A stretch of 62,847 bases of DNA, the filler included. It is 4 parts of 4 records of this genome, joined end to end, with 100 filler letters (N's around TTAATTAATTAA, not from the genome) between each part and the next. Parts side by side here need not be neighbours in the genome. Positions count along the whole stretch, not along the records: positions 16,232 to 34,852 come from SRR31156797_16325; 3 more parts are not named here. The stretch is one strand, 5' to 3'. The position numbers and the translations under genes are program-made. The notes beneath the pieces are model-generated. The model was given only the letters and a program-made list of their open reading frames with translations. It made no database searches and was not told the origin of the DNA. Shown one piece after another: positions 16,030-34,580 of the stretch; position 1 is the stretch's first letter, and every line of letters starts with the position of its first letter.

Positions 16030-16101
16030 CCCTCTTCGTGGACGGGGGGCAAACAGAATGAACGCAAACATTCAAGCCACTTACAAATCCACACCGACAG
16101 T

Positions 16102-16131
16102 GGGCGGATAGCTCAGTTGGGAGAGCATCGG
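16102..16131 (+). tRNA. 5' fragment of a tRNA (probably tRNA-Val), cut by the contig end
   Basis: GGGCGGATAGCTCAGTTGGGAGAGCATCGG is an acceptor-stem 5' strand plus D-arm. The anticodon is not present, so identity is inferred. Confidence 0.8.
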
Positions 16132-16231
16132 NNNNNNNNNNNNNNNNNNNNNNNNNNNNNNNNNNNNNNNNNNNNTTAATTAATTAANNNNNNNNNNNNN
16201 NNNNNNNNNNNNNNNNNNNNNNNNNNNNNNN
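16132..16231. other. Artificial contig spacer (N44-TTAATTAATTAA-N44)
   Basis: Stop-codon linker flanked by Ns; base composition changes abruptly across it. Confidence 0.98.
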
Positions 16232-16282
16232 TTATATTAATATAATCGTGCTTTCTCTTTTCTTTATGAATTACAAATCCAT

Positions 16283-19165
16283 CTAGTATTTTAATAGTTT
16301 ACCTTGTATTGTTTTAACATCGGAAATAACTTTATAAAAGAAAATTCTTTCGGTACTATTTCCTCCGGTTAATTTAAAAGTGTACTCAATACCTGATCCT
16401 AAATAACCTTGATAAATATTTTCTACAATTACGCCTGTCAGATCATACACCTCTATTTTAACATAGCTATCAACTGATGAAGTGACTTGTAATTTTGCTT
16501 CTGTTCTAAACGGATTAGGATAAGCTGAAACTAACAACTGATGATCTGATAATTCCTGTATGGAAGTTGTTATGGAAACATTGGTTGGAATTTGCTGAAT
16601 AAACACATCTGTACTGGCTTTGTAGGCCACTTCAATATACTCAGGGAAATAGTTCTCAATATCCGGATGATCGAAACAAACGGTATAGCTGATGGTAAAA
16701 TTGTCATCGCGACATTTTCCAAAGTTGCTGATATCATCTAATTTAAATCCATATACACCGGTTGTTGGATCTGTCATGTTTTTCTCCACCTTATAATTCT
16801 TAGAGTTCCCTACATCACTGATATAGCCATAATCTAATCCTACTACCAAATGCGACAAGTCATGTTCAGCTTTGCCGTTGGTATATACGGTCATGGAAAT
16901 CTCATAGCAATTATCACCAATAGGTGTAATTTCATCTATCTCGCTGTAAAAGCCATCTTCAAATAAATCATCAGAAATCTCTCCTGAACCATTATCATCT
17001 CCTCCAGAAGTAGAATCATCTGCAGAACATTGAATGGTAATGGTATCTGCAGCAAAGCATCCTTCAGCATTTAAAGCAGTGTAGGCAACAGTTGCAGAAC
17101 CTGTACCTACATAATAGTTTAAAGTATTTAAAGAGCTGGATTCAATATAATAAGTATCATTATCCAGTATTTCCCAGTTAAAAGTATTGGCACCGTAAAC
17201 ATTTGCCTGAATGCTGTTTCCACTTGTTTCACATGCTGGGTTTTCTGGCTGAATTAATTCCACACTTACTTCATTTGCAGTATCAATTGTTATTTCTTCA
17301 GTAATTGTACATCCATTTTCATCTGTCACTTCAACTAAATAATTGCCGGGATTAACATTGTCCCTTTGAGCCCCAAGATAACCATCGCTCCAAAGAAAAA
17401 CATAAGGAGCCAGTCCTCCGCTTCCGGTTAAATCAACGCTTCCGGTTAAGGCACCTCCACAAGCAGGTTGTGCTATACTTGAGCTTACAGAAATATTCTG
17501 GCTTACGCTTGAAATTGAAATGGTCTCTGTCTTTTCACAACCCAACGCATCAGTCATGGTTATGGTATAATCACCAGCTTCTGTGGCAATATAAGGCGAG
17601 CTGATCAATTCTCCATTGAGATAATATTCATAGGAAGGCATACCGCCCGTTCCATTAAAGCTTAGTTCTACATTTGTATCCGGACTATCACAGTCAGCGC
17701 GTGAAATAGATTGGTTTAAATTCAGTTCCTGACGATCAGCCAGGTTAATTGTTCTGGTTGCTTCACATCCATTTACATCAGTAACCGTTACACGATATCT
17801 GCCACTTTCTACTCCGGTAATTGATGAGGAGGTTTCCCCGTTATCCCACAAATAAGTATAAGGTTCCGAACCATATCGTACATCTGTAATGCTCACTGTT
17901 CCGTCATCTCCACCGTAGCAAGTTGGATTGATAACAGCGGTACTTAAAGATAATTTTTTGATACCAACAGCTGTACTATTTTTAGCACTACAACCTTCTG
18001 CATCTACCACAGTTAAAGAATAACTGCCAGAATTTATATCGCTAAGGTTAGCCGTTGTGTCCTGATTAGACCATTCGTAGGAGTAAGGAGCTGTACCTCC
18101 ACTCACTGAACTTTCAATGGTTCCCTGACCTTCCTGATAACATTCAAGAATATTTGGGGTTAAGCTTACTGCTAAATCCGTTTCTTCTTTAAGCTGAATT
18201 GTTTCGTAATGACTACAACCATTACTATCCAGAATCTGCACCGAATAATTACCGGCGTATACATTGGTTAAATTACTTTCCGTGTTTCCATTATTCCAGG
18301 TGTAAGCATATGGCGCTGTTCCTCCGCTTACATTTAAGCTAATGCTTCCATTGTTACTCGCACAACTTGGGTTTACCAATTCTGTTTGAACAGATAAAGA
18401 AGATTCCGGCTGTAATATTTCGGTTTGTAAAGTAACTGTTGCTCCTGATGCATCAGAAATAATAACCTCATATGACCCTACTTTTAAACCGCTTGTATTT
18501 TGAGAATTACTTCCGTTACTCCATTCAAAAGTAAAGGGAGCTGTTCCTCCTTCAATTGTTATCTCAGCAGATCCATTATTTCCGCCAAAGCAGGATACAT
18601 CTTGTTTTTGAATACTAGCTGTAAAATCATTGCTTTCTTCAACAGGAATTTCTATTTCTTCGTAGAATACGCAGGTAGCTGCTTTATAGGCTATTTTAAT
18701 ACTGTCTTTCAAACTCTCAAGGCAATCAGAATCTCCACATACGGTATAAGATAGCGTAAACGATCCGCTTTTTTTATCTTCTCCAAAGCCCTGAATTTCA
18801 TCAATCTTAAAGCCACTTAAGCCTGTTGTTGGATCAGAAGTTGGAATCTCCATAATCCATCCTTCGGAATTAGAAACATTACTTATTTCACCACAAGGAA
18901 CCTCTACTACCATATGCGAAAGAGCATGATGACAGCCTGCTTCGACATTAATTTGTAATTGGATATTTAGGCAACCATCATTTTCATCGAATTGAAGTAA
19001 TTCTGCAGAAAAGTAATTATCGCCACAGTCCCGGGTTGTTTCTTCAGGAACTGAAGCCTTTATTTGTTGTGTTAAGAATGAAAAGACAACTAAACTAACT
19101 ACTGCCATCCATGTACTTTTCTTAAGCTGCTTAAAAAAAGTGCGCTCTATTATCGTATTTTTCAT
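16283..19165 (-). CDS. T9SS-secreted surface protein with SprB repeats, two copies of an unrecognised domain, and a type A CTD
   Basis: Signal peptide; repeated C..G...G.I.....GG..PY.Y.W.NG/..L..G.Y.V...D..GC units; C-terminal AYPNPF..IEVYDLTG..FFYKV..GKLLKY. Confidence 0.85.
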   Translation of the reverse strand: MKNTIIERTFFKQLKKSTWMAVVSLVVFSFLTQQIKASVPEETTRDCGDNYFSAELLQFDENDGCLNIQLQINVEAGCHHALSHMVVEVPCGEISNVSNSEGWIMEIPTSDPTTGLSGFKIDEIQGFGEDKKSGSFTLSYTVCGDSDCLESLKDSIKIAYKAATCVFYEEIEIPVEESNDFTASIQKQDVSCFGGNNGSAEITIEGGTAPFTFEWSNGSNSQNTSGLKVGSYEVIISDASGATVTLQTEILQPESSLSVQTELVNPSCASNNGSISLNVSGGTAPYAYTWNNGNTESNLTNVYAGNYSVQILDSNGCSHYETIQLKEETDLAVSLTPNILECYQEGQGTIESSVSGGTAPYSYEWSNQDTTANLSDINSGSYSLTVVDAEGCSAKNSTAVGIKKLSLSTAVINPTCYGGDDGTVSITDVRYGSEPYTYLWDNGETSSSITGVESGRYRVTVTDVNGCEATRTINLADRQELNLNQSISRADCDSPDTNVELSFNGTGGMPSYEYYLNGELISSPYIATEAGDYTITMTDALGCEKTETISISSVSQNISVSSSIAQPACGGALTGSVDLTGSGGLAPYVFLWSDGYLGAQRDNVNPGNYLVEVTDENGCTITEEITIDTANEVSVELIQPENPACETSGNSIQANVYGANTFNWEILDNDTYYIESSSLNTLNYYVGTGSATVAYTALNAEGCFAADTITIQCSADDSTSGGDDNGSGEISDDLFEDGFYSEIDEITPIGDNCYEISMTVYTNGKAEHDLSHLVVGLDYGYISDVGNSKNYKVEKNMTDPTTGVYGFKLDDISNFGKCRDDNFTISYTVCFDHPDIENYFPEYIEVAYKASTDVFIQQIPTNVSITTSIQELSDHQLLVSAYPNPFRTEAKLQVTSSVDSYVKIEVYDLTGVIVENIYQGYLGSGIEYTFKLTGGNSTERIFFYKVISDVKTIQGKLLKY

Positions 19166-19294
19166 CTTCGTGTTGTGCGTGTGTTGAGGTTGATACGTTT
19201 AGTCAATAAAATAGTTACTTTAATCAGTAAATAAAATCATATTATCAAAGTGTCAATTTAAATTACTGAATAACGCGCTACCCATATATTTTAT

Positions 19295-19302
19295 TATTTT
19301 TG
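19295..19302 (+). promoter_or_regulatory. Bacteroidota -7 promoter element (TAnnTTTG)
   Basis: TATTTTTG about 85 nt upstream of the dCMP deaminase start. Confidence 0.45.
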
Positions 19303-19387
19303 TCTTCGCAAAAAACCACATACATTGATCATAAAGCAATTCTGTTCTTCTTAAAAACGGATTGATCAATAATTATAGAGTTACTTC

Positions 19388-19837
19388 ATGAACGAAAAAG
19401 ATTTACCTGCGGAGAAAAAGCAGTTTTTATTGGATAAGAGATACTTGCGGATGGCGCATATCTGGGCCGAGAATTCGTATTGTATCAGAAGGCAGGTTGG
19501 CGCATTGCTTGTAAAGGATAAAATGATCATCAGTGATGGTTACAATGGAACACCCGCTGGTTTTGAAAACAATTGTGAAGACGAAAACAATATTACAAAA
19601 CCTTATGTTTTACATGCTGAAGCGAATGCCATAACTAAAGTAGCCCGATCGAACAACAGTTCCGAAGGTGCAACGCTATATGTAACCTGTTCTCCATGTA
19701 TTGAGTGTGCTAAACTTATTGTGCAGGCAGGTATTACTAGGGTAGTGTATAACCAAAAATACAGAGTGGAGGATGGAATTATGCTGCTTAAAAGAGCCGA
19801 TATTCAAACGATTCATATAGATTTAGATTCAGAATAA
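19388..19837 (+). CDS. dCMP deaminase (ComEB family)
   Basis: HAEANAI and SPCIEC zinc motifs, GYNG. Confidence 0.93.
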   Translation: MNEKDLPAEKKQFLLDKRYLRMAHIWAENSYCIRRQVGALLVKDKMIISDGYNGTPAGFENNCEDENNITKPYVLHAEANAITKVARSNNSSEGATLYVTCSPCIECAKLIVQAGITRVVYNQKYRVEDGIMLLKRADIQTIHIDLDSE

Positions 19838-19847
19838 AGATTAAGAT

Positions 19848-21455
19848 ATGGGATATAAAAACACAAGAAAACAGATATTTCAACCAATAATATTTGCGCT
19901 GGTACTTATTGTAGGGATTTTTATTGGCTATGCCATTCTACCCATTAAGGCAGGCAAAAAGAATCCTCTGGTTATCTATCCTGAAACCAATAAGATTGAA
20001 GCCATTATTGATCTAATTCAGGAGGAATATGTAGATACAGTGAACACAGAAAAACTACAAGAGGAAATTATTCCTGAAATTCTGAAAAAGCTGGATCCTC
20101 ATACTGTATACATCCCTGCTAAAGATTTACAGAATGTGAACGAAGAATTATCCAGTGGTTTTGGAGGAATTGGTGTTCAGTTTAGTATTCAAAAAGATAC
20201 GGTAATGGTTGTGGCTGTTGTTTCCGGCGGTCCTTCAGAAAAAGTGGGCATTTTACCAGGCGATAGAATTGTATCTGTCAATGATTCTGTGATTGCCGGA
20301 AATGGTATTAAAAACTCAGTGGTACTAAAATTACTGCGCGGAGAAATGGGAACTCAGGTTAAAGTGGGCGTAATCAGAAGAAAACTGACCGAGCCATTAC
20401 AATTTGATATTACCCGTGGCAAAATTCCAATGTATAGTGTAGATGTTTCGTACATGGTCACCGATGAAGTGGGCTATATTAAAGTGAGTCGATTTGCCAT
20501 GAATACTTATGGTGAATTTTTAACGGCTTTGGCTAAATTAAAAGCGAATAGTTGTAAGAAAATAGTTGTTGACTTTAGAGGAAACTCTGGTGGTTATTTA
20601 GATGTAGCCATCAATTTATGTAATGAGTTCTTACACAATGGTGATATGATTGTGTATACCGAGGGCAAAGCTCATCCACGACAGGAAGTATATGCTAACG
20701 GAAAAGGAACTTGTCAGGAAACAGAGATTGCTGTTTTGATCGATGAATTCTCAGCTTCAGCCAGTGAAATCTTTGCCGGAGCTATTCAGGATAATGACAG
20801 GGGAATTGTTGTGGGACGTCGCTCGTTTGGTAAAGGACTGGTTCAAAATCAAATTTCGCTAAAAGACGGTTCTGCCTTGCGTTTAACCATTAGCAGGTAT
20901 TATACACCGTCGGGCAGATGTATTCAAAAGCCTTATGAAAATGGAACTGAAGAGTACTATAAAGATATTGTAGAACGTTATCAGCACGGAGAATTCTTTT
21001 CTCAGGATAGTATCGATGTAAATGATTCTTTACAATACAAAACCAAGGAAGGCAGAATTGTATATGGCGGCGGCGGCATTATGCCGGATCATTTTATACC
21101 AAGAGATACATTGGGCTTAACTAACTATTATTACAAAGTTCGTGAAAACGGTTTAATTTATCGCTTTGCATTAGAGTATACCGATAATAACAGGTCGAGT
21201 CTTGAAAAGTATACCAAGGTTGAATATTTAAAAGCTTATTTAAATAAACAAGCGATTTTAGATGATTTTAATAAGTACACTAAAAAGGAGGGTGTAAAGA
21301 TGAACCGCAAAGAGTATAATATTTCGAAAGATATTATTGATGTAGAATTGAAAGCCTATATTGCCAGAAATATAATTGACAATGAAGGTTTTTACCCAAT
21401 ATTGTCAGAAATTGATGAGGAACTACAAGCTGCGGTTAAGCTGATGACTGAATAA
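19848..21455 (+). CDS. S41-family C-terminal processing protease with PDZ domain
   Basis: LDPH, GIG PDZ motif, DFRGNSGG, SASASEIFAGAIQD, GKGLVQ. Confidence 0.93.
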   Translation: MGYKNTRKQIFQPIIFALVLIVGIFIGYAILPIKAGKKNPLVIYPETNKIEAIIDLIQEEYVDTVNTEKLQEEIIPEILKKLDPHTVYIPAKDLQNVNEELSSGFGGIGVQFSIQKDTVMVVAVVSGGPSEKVGILPGDRIVSVNDSVIAGNGIKNSVVLKLLRGEMGTQVKVGVIRRKLTEPLQFDITRGKIPMYSVDVSYMVTDEVGYIKVSRFAMNTYGEFLTALAKLKANSCKKIVVDFRGNSGGYLDVAINLCNEFLHNGDMIVYTEGKAHPRQEVYANGKGTCQETEIAVLIDEFSASASEIFAGAIQDNDRGIVVGRRSFGKGLVQNQISLKDGSALRLTISRYYTPSGRCIQKPYENGTEEYYKDIVERYQHGEFFSQDSIDVNDSLQYKTKEGRIVYGGGGIMPDHFIPRDTLGLTNYYYKVRENGLIYRFALEYTDNNRSSLEKYTKVEYLKAYLNKQAILDDFNKYTKKEGVKMNRKEYNISKDIIDVELKAYIARNIIDNEGFYPILSEIDEELQAAVKLMTE

Positions 21456-21530
21456 TAAAAAAATATCATACCCCAAAAGCAGTACAATCTTGTGCTGCTT
21501 TTTTTATACCATTGTGTCACCATTATCAAT

Positions 21531-21546
21531 TGGCACAATAAGTGCT
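21531..21546 (+). promoter_or_regulatory. Candidate sigma-54 (-24/-12) promoter
   Basis: TGGCAC-AATAA-GTGCT with exact GG-N10-GC spacing, about 50 nt upstream of ATG 21598. Confidence 0.5.
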
Positions 21547-21597
21547 ATTCTAAGCAAAATAAAAATACATACCTTTACATACAAAGAGGAGGATAGA

Positions 21598-21846
21598 ATG
21601 GGTTTATTACGAACGATTTTAATTATTGCTATTGTCTACTACATAATTCGTTTTCTGGGTCGTGTGGTTTTGCCATGGTTTTTGGGTAAACAAATGAGTA
21701 AAATGACTGGTCAGAACTACCAAAAGAGGGCGAATTTCAATCATAAAGAGAAAGAAGGAAAAGTCACTATTCAGAAAAAACAAGCTACCCAAAAAATGAC
21801 ATCTTCAGACATGGGAGAGTATGTCGATTTTGAAGAAGTTAAATAA
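21598..21846 (+). CDS. Small Bacteroidota membrane protein (DUF4834-like)
   Basis: N-terminal TM segment, KEGKVTI, C-terminal GEYVDFEEVK; ATG after GGAGG. Confidence 0.8.
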   Translation: MGLLRTILIIAIVYYIIRFLGRVVLPWFLGKQMSKMTGQNYQKRANFNHKEKEGKVTIQKKQATQKMTSSDMGEYVDFEEVK

Positions 21847-21931
21847 AGTTAAAACAAATTAGAAGTTTTGTTGTTGGATGTTAATAGCTATTTGATTATA
21901 TTTTGATACAATTTGCTAACAACCAACAAAT

Positions 21932-23365
21932 ATGGATTTTCCTTTATTTCACTTAGACTTTATGGGCAACCGCATGCTGGTTGCTGTTATTGCAATTTTG
22001 CATGTGTTAATCAACCATGCGATAGCGGTAGGTTTTATTCCTTTAATCACTTTACTTGAGTATTTAGGATTCAAATCAAAAGATTTTGATCCTGAAAAAA
22101 GTGAACGCTTGGATAAATTTTCATATAAGCTATTATTTGTTTCTTTTGTTATTACCACTACAGTAGGGGCTTTAACAGGTGTGGGCATATGGTTTGCGGC
22201 TGCGCTTGTTAATCCGGCATCAATTGCCAGTCTTATACGAGTGTTTTACATGGCCTGGTTTACAGAATGGATCATCTTTGTAACTGAGGTATCGCTTATC
22301 ATGATATATTTCTTAACCTGGAAAAGATCTCGAAAAAGCCGTAAAGCAAAAAAACAACATCTCATATTTGGTGCAGCTTTATCAATATTTTCATGGCTAA
22401 CCATGGCTATTATTGTTGCTATCCTCGGCTTTATGATGGATCCGGGAAACTGGAATACAGATAACACATTCTGGTCAGGCGTATTGAATCCGCTTTATAT
22501 GCCTCAGTTAGTATTCAGAACCGGCTTAGCCATGATGATGGGCGGAGTATTTGCCTTGTTCTTATCATCATTCTTTCTTAAAAAAGATGATCCAATTAAA
22601 GTTCCAGCTACCCGCACAATGTCCTTATGGACTTTATTCTGGACTCCAATTGCCGTGCTGGGTGCTTATATCTATTATGTAAAAATCCCAACCTTTATGG
22701 TAGGTAATCTTCCTGTTGCATTGGGGACACAAGCTTATCAGGATTGGTACAACTCTTTAATCTATATTATTATTAGTGGTGTTGGTTTAGCGGTATTGGT
22801 AAGTTTACTTTTACTATGGAAACCCCGAAGTTTTCCGAAAGTGTGGTTATGGATTCCATTGGTTATTCTGTTTGGATTTTTAGGAACATTTGAAAGATTA
22901 CGGGAATTTATTCGTAAACCCTATGTTATTGCGGATTATATGTATGCGAATGGTTTATTAAAAGAAGATTATCCACTGTATAAAAGAGATGGTATTTTAC
23001 CTCATTCATCTTATACGAGCACTCCAAAAGTTACCGAAAGGAATATGTTGGAAGCCGGTAAGAATGTTTTTAACATAGCTTGTACCAGGTGTCACACTAC
23101 CCATGGTTTTAATTCCATTGTGGGTAATTTTGAAAAAATGTACGGCGCCGATAAACCTTTCGACCCGGTAGCTATGAAAGCCTATATACAAGGAATGCAT
23201 AATGTGAAAACATATATGCCTCCGTTCCCTGGAAATGAAAAGGAATTGGATGCTTTGGTCGCTTACATTAAGAAATTACAAATCAATCCAGAAATACTTG
23301 AAGGTGTTCAAATCAATGGAGTACCAACTAACCCTATTGATATTTCAAGCCTTCAGGATAAATAG
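21932..23365 (+). CDS. Cytochrome bd subunit I (CydA)-like membrane protein fused to a C-terminal monoheme cytochrome c
   Basis: About 9 TM segments; HVLINH, GALTGVG, FTEW..F..E, GFMMDPG and REFIRKPY (aligns by eye with EYGRQPW); CTRCH plus MPPF. Confidence 0.8.
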   Translation: MDFPLFHLDFMGNRMLVAVIAILHVLINHAIAVGFIPLITLLEYLGFKSKDFDPEKSERLDKFSYKLLFVSFVITTTVGALTGVGIWFAAALVNPASIASLIRVFYMAWFTEWIIFVTEVSLIMIYFLTWKRSRKSRKAKKQHLIFGAALSIFSWLTMAIIVAILGFMMDPGNWNTDNTFWSGVLNPLYMPQLVFRTGLAMMMGGVFALFLSSFFLKKDDPIKVPATRTMSLWTLFWTPIAVLGAYIYYVKIPTFMVGNLPVALGTQAYQDWYNSLIYIIISGVGLAVLVSLLLLWKPRSFPKVWLWIPLVILFGFLGTFERLREFIRKPYVIADYMYANGLLKEDYPLYKRDGILPHSSYTSTPKVTERNMLEAGKNVFNIACTRCHTTHGFNSIVGNFEKMYGADKPFDPVAMKAYIQGMHNVKTYMPPFPGNEKELDALVAYIKKLQINPEILEGVQINGVPTNPIDISSLQDK

Positions 23366-23416
23366 AAATATATTAGTTAAAATGAATTTCTAACCTCATA
23401 CATAAAAAACTTATAT

Positions 23417-24724
23417 ATGTTAGCTCAATTACAACTAGTACCTAAAGATATACCCTTGGCTCTTCCTCTGCCAGAGAGTGTACTGATAATATTACTTGTT
23501 TTATCTTTTTTACTACATATTTTATTTGTGAACCTTATGGTAGGTGGTTCTATTCTTACTTTATGGTATGAAGTGAAAGGATTAAAAGATAAAAGATATG
23601 ATTCATTGGCATATCAAATAGCACAAACCATAACGGTTAACAAAAGTTTGGCTGTTGTATTAGGTGTTGCTCCATTGTTATCGATCAACGTATTGTATAC
23701 TATTTACTTTTATTCCGCGAATGCATTAACCGGGAAATACTGGATACTGTTAGTGCCTTTGGTTACGTTGGTATTTTTACTTTTATATGCGCATAAATAC
23801 ACCTGGAAAAAACTGGAAAACAATAAGCCCTTGCATATTGCTATGATTGCTTTGGCTGTGGCATTGTTTTTATTTATCCCTTTTATATTTTTAACCAATA
23901 TCAACTTAATGTTATTCCCTGAAAAATGGGGAGATGTAAAAGGATTCTTTTCAGCCTTAGCTTTACCAAATGTTTTACCGCGTTATTTTCATTTTCTGGT
24001 AGCCTCATTAGCTATTACCGGATTGTTCTTGTTTTACTACATTAGTAGAAAGAGTTTTGAGTTTAAAGAGAATTTACCTGATTTAGATAAGTATGACCTT
24101 CAACGTAAATTCTATAGCATTGCATTTGGAACCACTGCATCTCAGTTTATATTTGGCCCCTTACTATTTCTTACACTACCATCAAAGGGAATTGATTGGA
24201 ACTTGTTTTGGGTTATTTCATTAGGTGTATCATTTGCTATACCTGCTTTAATATTTATGTGGAAAGAGGTTACAGGGCCTCAGGAAACAATTGGTAAACA
24301 CTTTATTAAAGTAGTAACTCTTTTAACCATTACAGTCATTTGCATGGGTACCGGTCGACACATATTCAGAGCAAATGCTTTGGAACCTCATCAGAAATTA
24401 ATGGCTGAAAGAACGGCTAGACACATTGAAATGGTAAAGCAGGCTACTCTGGAAGCGGAGATGGGACTTGATGCGCAAGCTGATTTACCTCCTGGTGAAG
24501 CCTTGTTTAAACAATACTGTGCAGTATGCCATAAAATTAACGAGCGATTAGTAGGACCTCCGGTAACTGAAATGATTGAGGTGTATTCTGCAGATTTTGA
24601 TGGTTTTAAAAAATGGGTTCGTAAACCAGGAAGAAAGAGAATGGATTATCCGGCGATGACCGGATTTCCACAACTTACAGATCAGGAATTATCAGATTTA
24701 GCGGATTATATATTTGAGCAATAA
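23417..24724 (+). CDS. Second CydA-like multi-TM protein with C-terminal monoheme cytochrome c
   Basis: About 9 TM segments; LHILFVNL, AVVLGVAP, PRYFHFLVAS; C-terminal CAVCH...GPP...M. Confidence 0.75.
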   Translation: MLAQLQLVPKDIPLALPLPESVLIILLVLSFLLHILFVNLMVGGSILTLWYEVKGLKDKRYDSLAYQIAQTITVNKSLAVVLGVAPLLSINVLYTIYFYSANALTGKYWILLVPLVTLVFLLLYAHKYTWKKLENNKPLHIAMIALAVALFLFIPFIFLTNINLMLFPEKWGDVKGFFSALALPNVLPRYFHFLVASLAITGLFLFYYISRKSFEFKENLPDLDKYDLQRKFYSIAFGTTASQFIFGPLLFLTLPSKGIDWNLFWVISLGVSFAIPALIFMWKEVTGPQETIGKHFIKVVTLLTITVICMGTGRHIFRANALEPHQKLMAERTARHIEMVKQATLEAEMGLDAQADLPPGEALFKQYCAVCHKINERLVGPPVTEMIEVYSADFDGFKKWVRKPGRKRMDYPAMTGFPQLTDQELSDLADYIFEQ

Positions 24725-24760
24725 TTACATTAATAGTTAAATTCAGAGATTTGTTCAAAT

Positions 24761-24790
24761 GTCTTACTCATATGAGTAGGCCTTTTTCTT
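24761..24790 (+). terminator. Intrinsic terminator after the cytochrome pair
   Basis: GTCTTACTCA-TA-TGAGTAGGC followed by CTTTTTCTT. Confidence 0.7.
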
Positions 24791-24941
24791 TATTTATCAT
24801 ATCAGTTTCAATTGATTTTTGTAGATTTCGGTAAATATTTTCATTCATCACATTAAGAGTAAAGCCAAAGCATGAAAAACAACCCTAATCCACTATTATT
24901 CTTTCCTTTGTCTTGTTCTTATCTTTTTATTGAATAATACT

Positions 24942-27900
24942 ATGCGACTTAAAAACAAACTAAGCCTGGCCATTTTGTTATGCAGCATTATTTTTACTGC
25001 CTGTAAAGACAAAAACAAACCCACACAAAAACTTGCTGAAGTCAAGTACAATCCCAAAGTAGCCGCCTTTACTTCCGGTATGGTATCAAACCAAAGTGAG
25101 ATTGTGGTTCGTTTTTCTGAAATTATAGCTGAAACAGAACCCGGCTCACCTGCCTCTTCCAGCATTATGAAAATTTCACCTTCGTTAAAAGGAGAATATT
25201 ACTGGATGGATAATCAATCGCTGGCTTTTAAAGCGGAAGGATTGATGGAATCGGGTAAAATGTACAATGTAAAAATTGCTTTGAACCAGGTTTTTAAAGA
25301 TACCAAGGATGATTTTGAGTTTTCATTTCAGACCATTTCACAGAATTTTAGACTAGAAACAGGTGAAGTTTCGCCATATGAAAACACCGACCTGTCGGAT
25401 AATCAACTAAACGGGAAACTGATATTATCTGACTACGCGAATATGGAAAATATTCAACAGATCATGACTGCCGAACAAAAAGGCAATCAGCTGGAAATAG
25501 ACTGGCTACCATCGACCAAAGCCAATCAATATCCATTTATTATTCATCATATTAAAAGAGGTGAATCTTCCACTAGTGTGAGAATTAATTTAATTGGTAA
25601 ATCGATAGGTATTGATAAAGAAGACAGTGAAAAGATAAGCATTCCTTCTATTAACGATTTTGAATTATTGAGTTGCAGAACGGTCTTTCAGCCTCGTCAG
25701 GCTATAGAAATTTCCTTCTCTGATCCATTGAACCCGGAACAGGAATTAGATGGTCTCATTACGGTAAATAACAGTCAGCGCTTTTCAACCAGCATTGAGG
25801 ATAATGTCATTAAAATTCTTCCATATCACTCATTAAGTGGAGATGTGAATGTGACTGTTCATCCGGGAATTGAAAATATATTAGGTACGAAAAACACCGA
25901 TAAGCAAAACTACCAACTCACTTTTACCAGTACCAAACCGCAGGTGGAGTTTTTAGGTAAGGGAACTATCTTACCAGAATCTTCCGGTTTAATCTTACCT
26001 TTTAAGGCCGTAAGTTTAAAAGAAGTACAGGTTCATGTCATTAAGATATTTGAAAACAACATTGCCTCATTTTTACAAATCAACCGTTTAGATGGTGATT
26101 ACCAATTAAGAAGAGCAGGAAGATTAATTCTTAAGAAAACCATTCCGCTTAATACTGATCGTACGCTGGATCTGAATAAATGGAACACTTTTTCAATCAA
26201 TCTGGATGATTTGGTTAAAGTAGACCGGGGAGCAATTTATAGGGTGGAATTACGTTTTGCACGCAGAAATGCCATTTATCCATGTACGAATGAAGAGGGT
26301 AACGTTGATGCTTTACCAGAGACTGATCCGGATGAAATTAACGAGAAAGAATTGGCATATTATGATACGCCGGGTAGTGGGTCAAGCTATTATGATAATT
26401 ATTACTATTACGGAAGCTGGCATGATAGAGACGATCCTTGTAAACAAGCGTACTACCGAAAAAACAAGTTTGCCAGTCGTAATATTTTGGCTTCGAACAT
26501 AGGTATTATAGCCAAAAAAGGAACTGATAAAGAAATGGTGGTGGCTATTACTGATTTACGTTCAACAGCACCATTGGGCAATGTAGATGTAGAGATATAC
26601 AACTACCAGAATCAGCTGATTACTTCTTCTAAAAGCAATAGTGATGGTTTAGTAAAACTGGATGTGAGCAAACGACCTTTTTTATTAGTGGCTAAACACG
26701 AAAACCAACGTGGTTATTTACGATTAGATAAAGGTTCTTCCTTATCATTAAGTCGATTCGATGTAGCCGGACAATCTATTAACAAAGGTTTAAAAGGATA
26801 TATCTATGGCGAACGCGGGGTTTGGCGTCCCGGAGATACGCTATTCGTTTCTTTTATCCTGGAAGACAGAGAAAAGACATTACCAGAAAAGCATCCGGTA
26901 GTTTTTGAGCTAACGAACCCATACGGTCAGTTGGTAAAAAGAATGGCTACTTCTGAAGGTGTCAACAATATGTATTTGTTTAAAGTGGCAACTGATGAAG
27001 ATGCACCGACAGGAAACTGGATGGCTCGTTTTTTAGTAGGAGGAACGGTATTCAATAAAACACTAAAAATTGAAACGGTTAAGCCCAACCGACTTAAAAT
27101 AAATATGGATTTTGGAGTGGATATGATCTCGGTAGTCAAACCATATATCAGTGCCAACATGTCGGTAAAATGGCTGCATGGTGCCGTGGCAAAAAATCTT
27201 AAAGCCAATGTTACGGCAACACTGACTTCCATTCCCACACACTTTAAGCGATTTAGTGAATTTACTTTTGACGACCCGGCTCGTTCGTTTACCAGTGAAG
27301 AGGTCACTTTCTTTAACGGAAAAGTAGATAGTGAAGGCAAAGCCAATATTCAGGGAAGTCTGGATGTAAGCGATCAGGCTCCGGGTATGTTGAAAGCCTC
27401 CTTTAGAACGCGAGTTTTTGAAGAGAGTGGCGATTACAGTGTGGATCGATTCTCCATACCATACAGTCCTTATAAATCTTATGTGGGAATTAAAACTCCT
27501 GCCGGAGATAAACGAGGTATGTTACTGACAGATAAAGATCATACCATAGAAGTGGCCACTGTTGACAGCGAAGGAAACCCTATTTCCAAAAGCAAGCTGA
27601 AATATATGATTTATAAAGTAAGCTGGCGCTGGTGGTGGGAATCAGGAGCCGATAACCTGGCTCGCTATGTATCTTCATCAACTGAACATGTAATTAAAAA
27701 AGGAACCTTGAGCACCAAAGAGGGTATGGGTACCTTCGATTTTGAAATTGAATATCCAGAATGGGGAAGATATCTTATTCGTATATACGATCCAGAAAGT
27801 GGTCATATTTGTGGTAAAACAGTTTATGTGGATTGGCCGGGTTATGCTTCCAAACCGGTTGGTGATAATCCGGAAGCTGCATCTATGCTTACCTTATCAA

Positions 27901-30488
27901 CTGAGGAATTAAAATACAATGTAGGTCAACAGGCCAAGGTAAATTTTGCTTCTTCGGAAGGAGGAAGAGCTTTGGTGACTATTGAAAACGGCACAAAAGT
28001 GTTAAAAGAGTACTGGGTACAAACGCAAAAGGAATTTACTGCGTTTAGCTTTGATGTGACCAAAGACATGACACCAAATATTTACGTACATGTTACTTTA
28101 TTACAACCTCATGCGCAAACAACCAACAATTTGCCCATAAGAATGTATGGTGTTACACCTTTATTAATTGAAGATGCCGAAACTCATTTAAAACCGGTGA
28201 TCGAAATGCCGGATACATTGGTGCCTGAGCAGAAAGTATCCATTAAGGTAAAAGAAGAAAACGGAAAGGCAATGACCTATACCATCGCTATGGTTGAAGA
28301 TGGTTTACTGGATCTAACGCGTTTTAAAACACCACAGCCATGGAATTATTTTTATGCCAGAGAGGCTTTAGGTGTTCGCACATGGGATATTTATAATCAG
28401 GTAATTGGTGCTTATGGTGGCCAAATTGAAAAGGTGTTTAGTATTGGTGGTGATGGCGATTTAAACGAGAAGAAAAAAGATGCCAATGCCAATCGTTTTA
28501 AACCTGTGGTAAAAGTATTTGGGCCGTTCGAACTGAAAAAGGGCAAAACCCAAACACATGAATTCAAAATGCCTCAGTATATCGGTTCTGTCAGGACTAT
28601 GGTCGTGGCGCGCAATGAGCGTATGTATGGCAATGCAGAAAAAACAACGCCGGTTAAAAAGCCTTTAATGGTGCTGGCTACCTTACCTCGCGTATTGGGT
28701 CCCGGAGAAACAGTAAAACTGCCGGTTACAGTTTTTGCCATGAGTCCGGATATTAAAAAGGTGGATATTTCAATTGAGACCAACGATATACTCAACCTGA
28801 AAGAAAGCAAAACGCAAACTATTACTTTTAATAAAGAAGGGGATCAGGTGGTTCCTTTTACTTTGGAGATTCCTCCGAAACTAGGAGTAGGTAAGGTAAA
28901 AATTATTGCTAAATCCGGATCGAAAGTAGCAGAGGATGAAATTGAAATACAAGTACGTAATCCCAATCCGCCAAGAGTGTCTTCTATTAGTAAAATGTTG
29001 AATGCTAAAGAGAGCAGCTCTATTGCCTACGAATTATTTGGTATGGAAGGAACCAATCATGCTACATTGGAGGTTTCATCGATACCTCCGGTTGATTTTG
29101 GCAGAAGACTTAAATACTTGCTTCGATATCCACACGGGTGCGTGGAACAGACAACCAGCTCGGTATTCCCACAGTTGTTTTTGGAAAATGTAATGGAACT
29201 GGACAGTAAGACCAAAGAAAAAATTGCAACCAACATTAAAGCAGGTATCAGTCGCTTATCCACATTTATAACTGCTGATGGCGGATTAAGTTACTGGCCG
29301 GGTCAAGCCGAATCCAGCGATTGGGGAAGTACTTATGCCGGTCACTTTCTGCTCGAAGCCGAAAAGAAAGGTTATAGTCTGCCCATCAATTTTAAAAATA
29401 AGTGGATTCAGTATCAAAAGAGAGTTTCTGGTAGTTATGTCCCAAGCGGAACGGGTGTTTATCGTCAGTTTAATCAGGCCTATCGTTTGTATACACTGGC
29501 TTTAGCTGGAAGTCCCGACAAAAGTGCGATGAACCGTCTGCGTAATATCAATAACTTATCATTGAATGCTCGTTGGCGATTGGCTGCTGCCTATGCCTTA
29601 ATCGGACAAAAAGAGGTAGCTGAAAAGCTGGTTGAAGATGCCAGTATAGAAGTAGATGATCAGGATTATTATTATACCTATGGATCTGTAACCCGAAATC
29701 AGGCCATGATTTTAGAAACCTTATCCTTACTGGGAGATATGGATAAAGCCGCACCTTTGATGCAGGAAGTGGCACAAAAGTTAAGCAGCCAAAGCTGGTA
29801 TAGCACACAGACTACTGCCTATGGATTAATAGCCATGAGTAAGCTATCGGCCAATGCGGGTAGCAACGGACTGTCTTTAAGTTATCAAGGTAGTGGAATG
29901 GACAAAGAAAATCTTTTATCGGATAAACCGGTACATCAAATACAATTACCATCATCTATACATGATAAAGGTGAGATTAGTATTGAGAACAAAGCCGATG
30001 GTGTGCTGTTTACCCGTTTAATTTTGGAAGGAACACCATTTAAAGGCGATACCGTGAGTGAGAGTTCTAATCTGAAACTAAAGGTAAAATACACCGATTT
30101 AAAAGGAAATGCCATTGATGTAAACCGTTTAACGCAAGGCACCGACTTTATGGCCGTGATTACAATTACGCATCCGGGACAGTTATCTTACTATAAGAAT
30201 ATGGCCTTAACCCAGATATTCCCTTCTGGTTGGGAAATCCGCAATACGCGAATGGAAGATGTTACATCGTCCTACGAAATTGACGTTCCTGATTACAGAG
30301 ATATTCGTGATGACAGGGTGTACTCCTATTTTAATTTGGATCGTAATAAAAGCAATACTTTTATTGTGATATTAAATGCCACTTACCAGGGTAGGTTCTA
30401 TTTACCATCTGTTTCGTGCGAAGCTATGTACAACAACCAAATAACCGGACGAAAAGCGGGTTCCTGGGTTGAAGTCGTTGGAGAATAA
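24942..30488 (+). CDS. Bacterial alpha-2-macroglobulin lipoprotein with thioester motif
   Basis: Lipobox FTAC; ERGVWRPGD, YPHGCVEQ (CxEQ thioester), WYSTQ, DIRDDR and EAMY motifs; about 1850 aa. Confidence 0.95.
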   Translation: MRLKNKLSLAILLCSIIFTACKDKNKPTQKLAEVKYNPKVAAFTSGMVSNQSEIVVRFSEIIAETEPGSPASSSIMKISPSLKGEYYWMDNQSLAFKAEGLMESGKMYNVKIALNQVFKDTKDDFEFSFQTISQNFRLETGEVSPYENTDLSDNQLNGKLILSDYANMENIQQIMTAEQKGNQLEIDWLPSTKANQYPFIIHHIKRGESSTSVRINLIGKSIGIDKEDSEKISIPSINDFELLSCRTVFQPRQAIEISFSDPLNPEQELDGLITVNNSQRFSTSIEDNVIKILPYHSLSGDVNVTVHPGIENILGTKNTDKQNYQLTFTSTKPQVEFLGKGTILPESSGLILPFKAVSLKEVQVHVIKIFENNIASFLQINRLDGDYQLRRAGRLILKKTIPLNTDRTLDLNKWNTFSINLDDLVKVDRGAIYRVELRFARRNAIYPCTNEEGNVDALPETDPDEINEKELAYYDTPGSGSSYYDNYYYYGSWHDRDDPCKQAYYRKNKFASRNILASNIGIIAKKGTDKEMVVAITDLRSTAPLGNVDVEIYNYQNQLITSSKSNSDGLVKLDVSKRPFLLVAKHENQRGYLRLDKGSSLSLSRFDVAGQSINKGLKGYIYGERGVWRPGDTLFVSFILEDREKTLPEKHPVVFELTNPYGQLVKRMATSEGVNNMYLFKVATDEDAPTGNWMARFLVGGTVFNKTLKIETVKPNRLKINMDFGVDMISVVKPYISANMSVKWLHGAVAKNLKANVTATLTSIPTHFKRFSEFTFDDPARSFTSEEVTFFNGKVDSEGKANIQGSLDVSDQAPGMLKASFRTRVFEESGDYSVDRFSIPYSPYKSYVGIKTPAGDKRGMLLTDKDHTIEVATVDSEGNPISKSKLKYMIYKVSWRWWWESGADNLARYVSSSTEHVIKKGTLSTKEGMGTFDFEIEYPEWGRYLIRIYDPESGHICGKTVYVDWPGYASKPVGDNPEAASMLTLSTEELKYNVGQQAKVNFASSEGGRALVTIENGTKVLKEYWVQTQKEFTAFSFDVTKDMTPNIYVHVTLLQPHAQTTNNLPIRMYGVTPLLIEDAETHLKPVIEMPDTLVPEQKVSIKVKEENGKAMTYTIAMVEDGLLDLTRFKTPQPWNYFYAREALGVRTWDIYNQVIGAYGGQIEKVFSIGGDGDLNEKKKDANANRFKPVVKVFGPFELKKGKTQTHEFKMPQYIGSVRTMVVARNERMYGNAEKTTPVKKPLMVLATLPRVLGPGETVKLPVTVFAMSPDIKKVDISIETNDILNLKESKTQTITFNKEGDQVVPFTLEIPPKLGVGKVKIIAKSGSKVAEDEIEIQVRNPNPPRVSSISKMLNAKESSSIAYELFGMEGTNHATLEVSSIPPVDFGRRLKYLLRYPHGCVEQTTSSVFPQLFLENVMELDSKTKEKIATNIKAGISRLSTFITADGGLSYWPGQAESSDWGSTYAGHFLLEAEKKGYSLPINFKNKWIQYQKRVSGSYVPSGTGVYRQFNQAYRLYTLALAGSPDKSAMNRLRNINNLSLNARWRLAAAYALIGQKEVAEKLVEDASIEVDDQDYYYTYGSVTRNQAMILETLSLLGDMDKAAPLMQEVAQKLSSQSWYSTQTTAYGLIAMSKLSANAGSNGLSLSYQGSGMDKENLLSDKPVHQIQLPSSIHDKGEISIENKADGVLFTRLILEGTPFKGDTVSESSNLKLKVKYTDLKGNAIDVNRLTQGTDFMAVITITHPGQLSYYKNMALTQIFPSGWEIRNTRMEDVTSSYEIDVPDYRDIRDDRVYSYFNLDRNKSNTFIVILNATYQGRFYLPSVSCEAMYNNQITGRKAGSWVEVVGE

Positions 30489-30500
30489 TTTAAAAAACAT

Positions 30501-30541
30501 AAGGGTTTGTTCGGATAAAATTCAATCAGGACAAACCCTTT
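30501..30541. terminator. Hairpin terminator after alpha-2-macroglobulin
   Basis: AAGGGTTTGT...ACAAACCCTT inverted repeat. Confidence 0.65.
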
Positions 30542-30646
30542 ATAAATAATACTAGATTTTAGTAAAGAGATCGGTTATAAGTATTTTACAGAAAAAGTTG
30601 CATAAAATATAGTACTGAAACCGGAGTTTCAAATAAAAGATTAAAA

Positions 30647-31189
30647 ATGATTGATCCATTTTATGTATTAGCATTAATTTTAGTAGTAGGGTTATTTTAT
30701 GTTGTCCCAATTCTTTTAATAATCTTTCTTAATAAGTTGATAAGGAATAAATGGAATAATAGAGTTGCTAATTTGATTACTGCTTTATTAGTAATTGGAT
30801 TTGCCATCTTAATTTATCGTGATTTCAACCCTCCTAACAGTCAATATATTTCAAACTTTGAACATTATGCAGAACTTGATTTCCCAGAATCAGGTGAAAT
30901 TATTCATAAAACTTCATCGTCTTCAATATTCGATTTTGGAGGAACCACTTATTGCTCGCTTGTAAATTTAAATGAAAGTGATTATTCGAAATTTATAGAT
31001 AGAATAACAAAATCAGATTTTATTGAGAAAGATACTTATTATGGATCGAAAGAAATAGATAAACTTTTTTCTATGGCTTCTGATTTTCAAATTGAGAAAG
31101 TATTGACCATAGAGAAACCAGGTATGGAATACTCCATTATACAGTTGCATAATAGTAATTCGATTATTTTTTACTACTCAAGGTGGTAA
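30647..31189 (+). CDS. Hypothetical membrane-anchored protein (2 N-terminal TM)
   Basis: 180-aa ORF with two hydrophobic helices and a soluble C-domain; no motif recognised. Confidence 0.7.
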   Translation: MIDPFYVLALILVVGLFYVVPILLIIFLNKLIRNKWNNRVANLITALLVIGFAILIYRDFNPPNSQYISNFEHYAELDFPESGEIIHKTSSSSIFDFGGTTYCSLVNLNESDYSKFIDRITKSDFIEKDTYYGSKEIDKLFSMASDFQIEKVLTIEKPGMEYSIIQLHNSNSIIFYYSRW

Positions 31190-31470
31190 TATATAGAATT
31201 GAGACAATATTGGATATACGGTCATTGCTCATCTATTAGTATGAATTATAACATTATGTCTATTAAAAGTTTCTATCTATAGTTTCTGCTCAAGAAACAC
31301 AAAAACGTATTAATTCTGATGCATGGGATGAGTTTACTGAACAACATCTGTATACAAGCATTCATATCATTTTTCTAATCTTATATCAAAATATGTATTA
31401 AAAAATTATGGAATTGAATAAAAAACGAAGAGTTATTTACTTTTTTTGTCGTTCATTCAATTAAATTATA

Positions 31471-32883
31471 ATGCTATTTAATTCCATAGAGTTTGCCATA
31501 TTTTTGCCTGTCGTTTTTGTTTTATACTGGTTTGTTACCCATATAAATCTTAAACTTCAAAACTTCCTGTTACTTGCTGCCAGTTACCTATTCTATGGTA
31601 TGTGGGATTGGAGGTTTCTTTCCTTAATCGTTTTCAGCTCATTTGTCGATTATTTTGTAGGTATTGGTTTACATCAAACGAATGATAAAAAGCGACGTAA
31701 AATACTACTGTTGATAAGCATACTCATTAACCTGGGTTTTTTAGGCTTCTTTAAATATTTTAACTTCTTTGCGGAGAGTTTTGCCAATGCATTTACCTTG
31801 TTGGGGCATCCAATTAAAGCCACCACACTCAATATTATTTTACCTGTAGGGATTAGTTTTTATACTTTTCAAACATTAAGCTATTCTATTGATATTTATA
31901 AACGTAAGCTGGAGCCAACTAAAGATATCATTGCCTTTTTTGCCTTTGTCAGTTTTTTTCCACAGTTAGTGGCCGGCCCCATTGAAAGGGCTTCCAACCT
32001 ATTACCACAATTCTACAAACAAAGAACCTTTACATACGAAAGTGCCTCGCAAGGATTTAAGTATATGCTTAAAGGTTTTTTTATGAAAATTGTGGTGGCC
32101 GATCGTTTGGCCATATATGTAGATTCCGTTTTTTCCAATTACACAGCTTATTCCGGAATAACCTATATACTTGCCATGCTGTTCTTTGCATTTCAGATAT
32201 ACGGTGATTTTGCAGGTTATTCGTATATCGCCATTGGTGTGGCAAAGTTTTTTGGCTTTGACCTGATGATTAATTTTAACCGACCTTATCTGGCCAAATC
32301 AATTAAAGATTTTTGGTCGAGATGGCATATATCCCTTTCCACCTGGTTTAGAGATTACGTATATATTCCTTTGGGCGGAAATAGAGTCAGTTCGTTTAGA
32401 ATCAGTTTTAATTTACTGGCAACCTTTATAATTAGTGGTTTTTGGCATGGTGCTAACTGGACATTTATAGTATGGGGAACCATTCATGGCGCCATACAGG
32501 TATTGGAAAAAAACGTACTGAGTACTTTATTCAAATTTAAAATCTTCCGTTTTGTTTATCAGGCAATTGTATTTATAATAGTCGTGGTGGCTTTTTCAAT
32601 TTTCCGATCACAAGATATGTCGCAGGCTGCTCATATTATAACCGGTGCTTTCGACTTTTCAAAGCCTTATTATATAGGAAATCCATCGATATTTTTCTAT
32701 GGAGTTCTTGCCATCGTATCCTTGTTAACACTTGATATAATCGAAGAATATATTAAAACAAAAGAAATCGATTTCTTAAGCAAAAGGCCGGCTTTAAGAT
32801 ATATTTTTTATGCTGTAGTTATTCTTTTTATTATCAATACAGGTGTTTTTAATAATAGTCAATTTATTTATTTCCAATTTTAG
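31471..32883 (+). CDS. MBOAT O-acyltransferase (AlgI/PatA/DltB family)
   Basis: MLFNS, LPVGISFYTFQ, FFPQLVAGPI, DFAGYS, FWSRWHISLSTWFRDY, SGFWHGA and C-terminal FIYFQF motifs. Confidence 0.95.
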   Translation: MLFNSIEFAIFLPVVFVLYWFVTHINLKLQNFLLLAASYLFYGMWDWRFLSLIVFSSFVDYFVGIGLHQTNDKKRRKILLLISILINLGFLGFFKYFNFFAESFANAFTLLGHPIKATTLNIILPVGISFYTFQTLSYSIDIYKRKLEPTKDIIAFFAFVSFFPQLVAGPIERASNLLPQFYKQRTFTYESASQGFKYMLKGFFMKIVVADRLAIYVDSVFSNYTAYSGITYILAMLFFAFQIYGDFAGYSYIAIGVAKFFGFDLMINFNRPYLAKSIKDFWSRWHISLSTWFRDYVYIPLGGNRVSSFRISFNLLATFIISGFWHGANWTFIVWGTIHGAIQVLEKNVLSTLFKFKIFRFVYQAIVFIIVVVAFSIFRSQDMSQAAHIITGAFDFSKPYYIGNPSIFFYGVLAIVSLLTLDIIEEYIKTKEIDFLSKRPALRYIFYAVVILFIINTGVFNNSQFIYFQF

Positions 32884-32886
32884 TCT

Positions 32887-33801: not shown

Positions 33802-33815
33802 ACGTCTTTTGCAAT

Positions 33816-33823
33816 TATGTTTG
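33816..33823 (+). promoter_or_regulatory. Bacteroidota -7 promoter element (TAnnTTTG)
   Basis: TATGTTTG upstream of the lipoprotein pair. Confidence 0.45.
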
Positions 33824-33879
33824 TAAACATTCAAAAAAATCTTTTTATTGCTAAATATTAACAAAAATTGATTTACAAA

Positions 33880-34221: not shown

Positions 34222-34234
34222 TAAAACCGAATCA

Positions 34235-34567: not shown

Positions 34568-34580
34568 TTATGTAATCATA

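Follow-up and report, generated by a model that had tools for sequence, protein, structure and literature searches.

Two adjacent genes at positions 21932 to 24724 of a 62,847-nucleotide stretch of DNA (the window) raise the question of what is done by a protein pair in which each member resembles the catalytic subunit CydA of cytochrome bd oxidase, carries its own haem c domain and lacks a recognisable quinol site. On the evidence of the sequences we consider it rather probable that, taken as a whole, the pair is an OR-C1-type a/b heterodimer of CydA paralogs which acts as a copper-free, cytochrome c-fed, O2-reducing oxidase. To our knowledge, only three enzyme superfamilies reduce O2 in respiration, and all characterised bd-type enzymes are quinol-dependent for their electrons. 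If this proposal is true, a member of the bd type that draws on cytochrome c would provide a copper-free end to a cytochrome c chain.

Both open reading frames (ORFs) lie on the same strand where the first-pass annotation had placed them, and all of the motifs quoted there are present. These are HVLINH (residues 24-29), PQLVFR (191-196), REFIRKPY (324-331), CTRCH (384-388) and YMPPFPG (428-434) in gene 1, and PRYFHF (188-193), ICMGTGR (308-314), CAVCH (368-372) and PAMTGF (412-417) in gene 2. The features of the pair are as follows:

21932..23365, + strand: gene 1, putative OR-C1a-type subunit of 477 aa; an ORF with an eight-helix CydA-like core and a C-terminal monohaem cytochrome c domain
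21968..22912, + strand: gene 1 membrane core, residues 13-327, eight helices, from the AlphaFold secondary structure and mapping to E. coli CydA; contains H24, E112, E119, H143, R196, E321, R324 and E325
22901-22924: REFIRKPY of gene 1, with R328 and P330 just past the end of the core
23048..23278, + strand: gene 1 cytochrome c domain, residues 373-449, from PF13442, a cytochrome c6 alignment and motifs
23081-23095, + strand: haem c motif CTRCH of gene 1
23216-23218, + strand: distal Met of gene 1, in YMPPFPG
23417..24724, + strand: gene 2, putative OR-C1b-type subunit of 435 aa; an ORF with an eight-helix CydA-like core and a C-terminal monohaem cytochrome c domain
23474..24370, + strand: gene 2 membrane core, residues 20-318; contains H34, H140, R189, H192, M310 and R314
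24482..24715, + strand: gene 2 cytochrome c domain, residues 356-433, from PF00034, profile matches and motifs
24518-24532, + strand: haem c motif CAVCH of gene 2
24656-24658, + strand: distal Met of gene 2, in PAMTGF

The relationship of the membrane regions to CydA is faint in single sequences and stronger with deep profiles. Neither Pfam nor NCBIfam models the membrane part of these proteins, NCBIfam gave no match above its cut-offs for either of them, and public databases label the family only as 'c-type cytochrome'. Single-sequence phmmer searches of the PDB returned CydA of Geobacillus (5doq_A) as the sole membrane-protein match; these hits span helices 1 to 4, with E-values of 0.0033 (gene 1) and 0.011 (gene 2). 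A profile of 17 gene 1 sequences (A1) lowered the E-value to CydA to 7.4e-5, and A1 aligned with a five-sequence CydA alignment headed by that of E. coli (A3) with 77.7% probability and an E-value of 1.9e-5. A deeper profile, restricted to the membrane part, was built by adding 101 full-length relatives for a total of 102 sequences; these were drawn from the best 150 of the 754 proteins matched at E<=0.001 in a library of half-identity representatives. With hhalign, this profile aligns residues 8-347 of gene 1 to residues 3-471 of E. coli CydA (98.0%; E 2.5e-13), with the E. coli Q-loop appearing as one long gap. The hidden Markov model search that had been suggested as a check on CydA homology thus has a twofold outcome, in that the Pfam model of cytochrome bd subunit I (PF01654) matches neither protein at E<=1, yet the deep family profile reaches CydA. 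The same deep profile also matches the membrane core of gene 2 (90.1%; E 1.6e-6). A PDB search with a 17-homologue profile of gene 2 matched 130 sequences, the best 60 of which all contain c-type cytochrome domains, and CydA is therefore not visible among these listed matches.

Structure prediction gives a consistent picture. The AlphaFold models (mean predicted local distance difference test score, pLDDT, of 72.4 for gene 1 and 77.6 for gene 2) each comprise eight long helices and a small helical domain. In Foldseek searches the gene 1 model was matched first by ten CydA chains (E 1.6e-5 to 2.4e-4) and next by CydB chains, while the best match of the gene 2 model was the CydA chain 8b4o_A (E 6.5e-4), followed by other CydA and CydB chains. 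Alignment with VIA-align gave gene 1 a Z-score of 25.1 to CydA 5ir6_A (root-mean-square deviation 3.8; 315 residues aligned), with a range of 24.1-25.1 over four CydA representatives against 20.2-20.6 for CydB. For gene 2 the scores were 21.8-22.5 to CydA (best 7d5i_A, 22.5) against 17.6 and 14.7 to CydB, and this protein is therefore CydA-like rather than a CydB. CydA thus provides the best match for both models, as the initial reading of both membrane regions had anticipated. The next-best structural matches after CydA and CydB are the quinol-binding NrfD-type proteins ActF and ActC of alternative complex III and PsrC, with Z-scores of 13.7-18.4 overall (gene 1: 17.5-18.4 for ActF/ActC and 15.6 for PsrC; gene 2: 15.9-16.8 for ActF/ActC). 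This resemblance between models and solved structures hints at a distant common eight-helix architecture.

The residues kept and lost bear directly on function. In E. coli CydA, H19 and E445 are axial ligands of the two active-site haemes, and H186 and M393 are ligands of haem b558. The literature on the superfamily describes E99 and E107 as channel residues and places the Q-loop beside haem b558. The deep profile alignment to E. coli CydA equates H24, E112, E119, H143 and M168 of gene 1 with H19, E99, E107, H126 and M151, respectively, and E325, R328, P330 and Y331 with E445, R448, P450 and W451. The N-terminal histidine, the E..F.E helix and the ExxRxP-aromatic motif originally recognised by eye are thereby mapped to H19, to E99/E107 and to E445/R448/P450/W451. 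Six residues separate E112 from E119. Conservation among the 102 divergent relatives is near-complete for H24 (100), E112 (101), E119 (99), R196 (102), E321 (101), R324 (101), E325 (101), R328 (100) and P330 (102), with H143 kept in 80. By this computed alignment, subunit a keeps the residues whose E. coli CydA equivalents bind the two high-spin haemes of the active site and form the lining of the proton channel. The haem b558 ligands have been lost from gene 1, with I277 at the M393 position and F195 at the H186 position. The arginine of PQLVFR had been assigned to the position of the b558 histidine; there is indeed no histidine at or near this site, and R196, which aligns with T187, lies at the H186 position or one residue past it, such that the assignment is correct to within one position. 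The Q-loop is likewise missing, as had been noted, with E. coli residues ~245-389 having no counterpart in gene 1 and with loops of only ~10-11 residues between transmembrane helices (TM) 6 and 7 in both proteins.

Gene 2 retains a different set. Its H34, H140 and H192 correspond to H19, H126 and H186 in an alignment that is weak (E 0.036, 1.4%), equivalents of E99 and E107 are absent, and there is a deletion where gene 1 carries its ExxRxP stretch. In an alignment of gene 2 with six homologues from Bacteroidota and with the b-parts of four divergent a-b fusions that occur naturally, all 11 sequences keep H34, R189, H192, M310 and R314, while H126 and H140 of gene 2 are kept only in the Bacteroidota type. 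The N-terminal histidine, the b558-type histidine and the candidate methionine of ICMGTGR that had been picked out in this protein, together with its lack of ExxRxP, are thus recovered as H34, H192 and the invariant M310. As the two genes retain different ligand sets, the proposal that the bd haem-ligand motifs are divided between them is supported at the sequence level.

Both C-terminal parts were recognised by Pfam above the curated cut-offs, that of gene 1 as PF13442 (residues 373-446; E 5.5e-8) and that of gene 2 as PF00034 (residues 360-432; E 3.1e-9). The gene 2 domain furthermore gave profile matches to cytochromes c555 and c552 (E 1.2e-31 and 5.9e-11) and a structural match to cytochrome c552 (Z 10.9). 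With a CxxCH motif, a distal Met and a family-model match in each, both belong to the class I cytochromes c, and each gene product appears to carry a haem c domain of its own, as originally claimed. The Lys/Arg counts of the gene 1 loops are 1, 4, 2 and 2 after helices 1, 3, 5 and 7 and nil after helices 2, 4 and 6. The corresponding counts in gene 2 are 1, 2, 3 and 1 against 0, 2 and 1, which is less clear-cut than in gene 1, with the two largest counts falling on the same side. By the positive-inside rule these loop charges put the N-terminus and the c domain of each protein on the outer side of the membrane, suggesting the periplasmic location that haem c attachment requires.

A family scan restricted to one genome per species yielded at least 597 stretches encoding gene 1 relatives, from which 80 loci were kept. 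In 78 of these the next gene downstream, on the same strand, is a gene 2 homologue, while in the remaining two (L018 and L074) the contig stops immediately past gene 1. The gene-neighbourhood survey that had been advised thus shows that the two genes travel together, and the pair retains ~47-60% identity across Bacteroidota classes and other phyla. Furthermore, four of 31 representatives of at least 560 aa (P0273, P0282, P0294 and P0328) are natural a-b fusions with chains of ~800-950 aa, and 17 of these 31 long relatives (P0266 and 16 others) contain eight CxxCH motifs. When the two membrane cores were co-folded with three haems, the interface score ipSAE was 0.83 in three runs as opposed to 0.00 for three controls; in calibration, 51 of 78 solved complexes and two of 108 mismatched pairs attained the mark set for this score. 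The runs agree in at least 94% of contacts, the partner has a pLDDT of 88, and the predicted interface is formed by helices 2 and 3 of both chains together with the N-terminal tails. In this computed complex, subunit b occupies the position of CydB in an ordinary bd oxidase. The co-fold supports, without showing, that the gene 1 and gene 2 products bind one another, and the postulated heterodimer is a prediction favoured by the interface score, the natural fusions and the pairing of the genes.

These observations bear on whether the pair could simply be an ordinary quinol-oxidising cytochrome bd with its cydB elsewhere, or a decaying and functionless duplicate, which we regard as barely credible. 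No cydB-like ORF occurs on the 18.6-kb contig piece that carries the pair (16232-34852), as had been remarked for its surroundings, and this absence would be expected if cydB lay elsewhere; gene 2, for its part, scores closer to CydA than to CydB. Canonical cydA adjoins its own cydB in four of five pair-carrying relative genomes and is absent from the fifth, that of Myroides phaeus, and PF01654 matches only these separate canonical cydA genes in the five genomes (E<=0.01). It follows that the pair does not represent one half of an ordinary bd oxidase left without its partner, and a distant cydB was rejected on this ground and on the loss of the Q-loop and the haem b558 ligands from gene 1. Decay is ruled out by the sequence identity and the gene order kept across Bacteroidota classes and other phyla, and the duplicate was accordingly discarded as a candidate. 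Haem-copper oxidase subunit I was found in 47 of 50 pair-carrying genomes, the three without a match being metagenome-assembled; this survey covered 50 of the 80 loci, and those dropped were mostly on short contigs. The coexistence of haem-copper oxidases and cydAB with the pair suggests that it represents an extra enzyme of respiring organisms with cytochrome c chains.

It is also conceivable, though distinctly improbable in our view, that the pair is an electron-transfer module, for example a quinol:cytochrome c oxidoreductase with a quinol site outside the lost Q-loop or a transmembrane wire to periplasmic copper or thiol proteins such as SCO1 and MbnH. Subunit b keeps a haem b558-type His and a Met as well as its own haem c, genes for SCO1, MbnP and MbnH occur nearby in 10-21 of the 80 loci, and both models resemble the quinol-binding ActC/ActF and PsrC proteins, all of which such a role would accommodate. 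The ActF and PsrC scores are, however, clearly below those of CydA, no quinol-site residues are recognisable, and a simple wire would have no use for the glutamate channel and the E445-type motif that are almost invariant in subunit a.

The proposed a/b oxidase has a published counterpart. Murali, Gennis and Hemp (2021; bioRxiv 10.1101/2021.01.16.426971) catalogued OR-C1a and OR-C1b, and the passages of the preprint that deal with them define OR-C1 as clades of CydA that lack a quinol site and contain CxxCH motifs. OR-C1a is described there as a protein of eight TM with a C-terminal haem c that adjoins an eight-TM OR-C1b; E99 and E107 are present in the OR a-types and missing from the b-types, the stretch between these glutamates contains a deletion, and up to eight CxxCH occur in Desulfovibrionia (bioRxiv 10.1101/2021.01.16.426971). 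The pair shares with this description two adjacent eight-helix CydA paralogs, the lack of a quinol site, the C-terminal periplasmic haem c, the a-type retention of E99/E107 as against the b-type, the six residues between the glutamates and the relatives with eight CxxCH, and none of the features compared with these passages differs. We therefore consider it very likely that the genes encode OR-C1a and OR-C1b, and the literature class that the first-pass annotation had named, as far as the published passages describe it, was the right one. Its implied novelty does not hold, since the family was already catalogued in 2021; the pair is a further member and no new kind of system, and the OR-C1 type is common in Bacteroidota. 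The preprint passages do not include a Bacteroidota form with exactly one haem c per subunit, a b-subunit with an H186-type His and an invariant Met, or a copper-gene neighbourhood. A full-text literature search for the OR-C1 subfamily names gave only the 2021 preprint as using them, the other three matches being unrelated, and a structural paper of 2026 repeats the qOR/OR-C/OR-N classification.

Comparison with other members of the superfamily sharpens this assignment. With CydAB, as in E. coli bd-I and Geobacillus bd (PDB 6rko, 5doq/5ir6), the pair shares the subunit fold, the pseudo-symmetric heterodimer packed through TM2 and TM3 (as predicted for the pair) and, in gene 1, the equivalents of H19, E99, E107, H126, E445 and R448. 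It differs in having no Q-loop and no H186/M393 b558 site in the catalytic subunit, eight helices rather than nine, a partner that is a CydA paralog with candidate haem ligands instead of CydB, a haem c domain fused to each subunit, and no match to PF01654. CydAA' (qOR4a/qOR4b) of Caldivirga maquilingensis and other Archaea is, according to the preprint passages, likewise a bd-type pair of CydA paralogs without CydB and the only such pair shown to reduce O2 (bioRxiv 10.1101/2021.01.16.426971). As described there, however, qOR4a keeps the quinol site and oxidises quinol, haem c is absent, and the duplication was independent. The OR-N bd-like proteins of Nitrospirota and others resemble the pair, in the same passages, in being CydA-derived, in lacking a quinol site and in the putative nature of their function, but they have 10 or 14 helices and other operon partners, and fused haem c is not their defining feature.

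In the mechanism we propose, reduced periplasmic cytochrome c, either soluble or complex-bound and supplied by alternative complex III or a bc-type complex, would donate electrons to the haem c of subunit a, which would take the place of haem b558 as the entry point and feed the di-haem site. At that site O2 would be converted to water, the protons for which would enter from the cytoplasm by way of the glutamate channel, and energy would be conserved by this proton uptake, as in other bd oxidases. Subunit b probably holds at least one further b-type haem, with H192 and/or H34 together with M310 as putative ligands, in addition to its own haem c, which may offer electrons a second way in or have a structural role. 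The result would be a copper-free, cytochrome c-dependent terminal oxidase, which may serve aerobic Bacteroidota under copper scarcity.

The genes around the pair in its relatives were surveyed by clustering every ORF of 90 aa or more that lies within 6 kb of the pair in the 80 loci and naming the clusters by Pfam. An AraC-type regulator occurs in 40 loci, with 38 copies located upstream on the same strand and 20 loci having one immediately upstream. Copper-linked neighbours, mostly on the same strand, include SCO1/SenC (21/80), MbnP (11/80) and an MbnH-like di-haem peroxidase (10/80), and other recurrent neighbours are DJ-1/PfpI (18/80), TonB-dependent receptors (13/80) and PepSY_TM proteins (8/80), along with the stress-type Fe/Mn superoxide dismutase (9/80) and methionine sulfoxide reductase MsrA (9/80). 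Two proteins without a Pfam match also recur. The first, an unnamed protein of ~126-160 aa that has a hydrophobic stretch at its N-terminus and conserves a Cys-rich motif, is encoded within 6 kb in 26 of the 80 loci (L027:12993-13373, L044:6197-6676 and 24 others) and may be an accessory subunit or metal-handling factor. The second, a multi-helix membrane protein of 191 aa, is encoded directly after gene 2 (within ~200 nt) in 11 of the 80 loci (L007, L010, L022 and eight others of Prolixibacteraceae and Mariniphaga), with MsrA a few kb beyond in nine loci.

The stress-type neighbours raise the prospect that the same architecture acts on another substrate, reducing or detoxifying nitric oxide, H2O2, peroxynitrite or some other small oxidant on the periplasmic side with cytochrome c electrons, as a stress enzyme rather than a respiratory oxidase. 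This we judge unlikely. Superoxide dismutase and methionine sulfoxide reductase, each near nine of the 80 loci, and DJ-1/PfpI near 18 would suit such a function, and an additional O2 reductase may be redundant given the haem-copper oxidases in 47 of 50 and the cydAB in four of five host genomes. Canonical bd oxidases, moreover, have peroxidase and catalase side activities and tolerate nitric oxide. The stress genes are, however, confined to a minority of loci and none lies in the window, while the conserved E99/E107-type channel and E445/R448 motif constitute the O2-reduction apparatus of bd oxidases. The sole tested CydA/CydA' enzyme of the superfamily, as reported in the preprint passages, reduces O2 (bioRxiv 10.1101/2021.01.16.426971).

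The copper-linked neighbours may point to an O2-reducing enzyme for copper-poor conditions. In Pedobacter (L051:4022-12819), SCO1, AraC, MbnP, MbnH, DUF2911 and two small ORFs form one same-strand run with the pair, and the copper-linked loci all belong to Flavobacteriia, Sphingobacteriia, Chitinophagia and Cytophagia. Similar same-strand runs that draw on SCO1/SenC, MbnP, MbnH-like, DUF2911, PepSY_TM, TonB-dependent receptor and AraC genes are seen in L028, L043, L026 and other loci of aerobic Bacteroidota. The clusters in these organisms look like copper-acquisition clusters, and the neighbour pattern suggests that the pair is co-regulated with copper acquisition, which would fit a copper-free oxidase that takes over from haem-copper oxidases under copper limitation. 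As a precedent, Pseudomonas aeruginosa induces its bd-type cyanide-insensitive oxidase on copper starvation, a condition that Frangipani et al. are said to have studied in Pseudomonas in 2008. We tentatively suggest, as a possibility on which we would not yet rely, that Bacteroidota OR-C1 is a copper-sparing cytochrome c oxidase, which would be switched on, often by an adjacent AraC-type regulator and along with genes for copper acquisition (SCO1, MbnP/MbnH, TonB receptor, PepSY_TM), once the supply of copper no longer suffices to build haem-copper oxidases. Its cofactors would be split in a manner unlike any solved bd oxidase, with the di-haem site in subunit a and a His/Met-ligated b-haem in a subunit b at the CydB position. 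A literature search on MbnP/MbnH in Bacteroidota returned nothing relevant among the matches listed, and these genes go unmentioned in a fitness paper on Bacteroidota.

Several observations weigh against an a/b oxidase of the kind proposed. The sequence links obtained with shallow alignments are weak (77.7% for A1 to CydA), and the hhalign comparison of gene 2 with the five-sequence CydA alignment, at the E-value of 0.036 and probability of 1.4% given above, is not significant. The profiles of gene 1 (A1) and gene 2 (A2) match at an E-value of 1.6e-10 over their full length, but most of this score stems from the shared c domains, since it drops to E 0.0013 (18%) when only the membrane parts are compared. 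M310 of gene 2 lies near the outer end of TM8, whereas M393 of CydA is on TM7. Three of the four fused b-halves have no haem c, and the second haem c is therefore not essential to the family. The complex score may stem from likeness to solved CydAB, and haems were included in the co-fold but not in the set used for calibration. The literature searches yielded no data on activity, spectra or expression for any OR-C1 member. Copper-linked neighbours are absent from the window, from all Marinilabiliales-type loci (L001-L025) and from the loci of Saccharicrinis, Mariniphaga and Prolixibacteraceae, and as the loci are related to each other, the neighbour counts are not independent events.

The family is widespread, with at least 597 stretches at one genome per species and 754 half-identity clusters, and the present locus is a clean two-gene example with host relatives that include culturable Flavobacterium, Chitinophaga and Pedobacter. 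Its interest lies in the biochemistry of the family, in the His/Met pair of the b-subunit and in the copper-gene neighbourhood in aerobic Bacteroidota. Two non-coding features complete the locus:

23366..23416, + strand: intergenic spacer of 51 nt, with no terminator-like site predicted inside
24763..24790, + strand: terminator-like hairpin of seven pairs (three G-C) followed by a T-run, 39 nt past the gene 2 stop

The terminator placed after gene 2 by the first-pass annotation thus exists as a hairpin with a T-run, but such sites are no commoner in the region than in shuffled sequence (three found as opposed to 2.5 +/- 1.5), and its function as a terminator is on this account weakly supported.

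The pair lies on the second piece of the window (16232-34852; G+C ~0.36), the proteins of which are 85% and 82-84% identical at the amino acid level to those of Saccharicrinis with local synteny, in accordance with the Bacteroidota origin that had been assumed. The neighbouring genes for a dCMP deaminase, an S41 peptidase and a DUF4834 protein recur in four Saccharicrinis loci only among the 80, and further neighbours encode a SprB-repeat protein, a bacterial alpha-2-macroglobulin, an MBOAT protein and a DUF1574 protein; none of the neighbours of the pair in the window offers a functional clue. The window itself consists of four joined contigs with G+C contents of ~0.5, 0.36, 0.45 and 0.6 and is not one molecule, with three artificial joints (44 N, TTAATTAATTAA, 44 N) located at 16132-16231, 34853-34952 and 57676-57775. 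The third piece encodes uvrD (55000-56856; 68.7% nucleotide identity to E. coli), adjoined by a CsrB/RsmB-family small RNA (RF00018; 102 bits; 56970-57280, - strand). The origin of this piece is gammaproteobacterial, it bears no relation to the Bacteroidota-like one that carries the pair, and the source of the window is therefore probably a mixed bin or metagenome. The 5′ half of a tRNA-like sequence at ~16100-16131 runs into the first joint, such that the first piece ends inside a tRNA gene.

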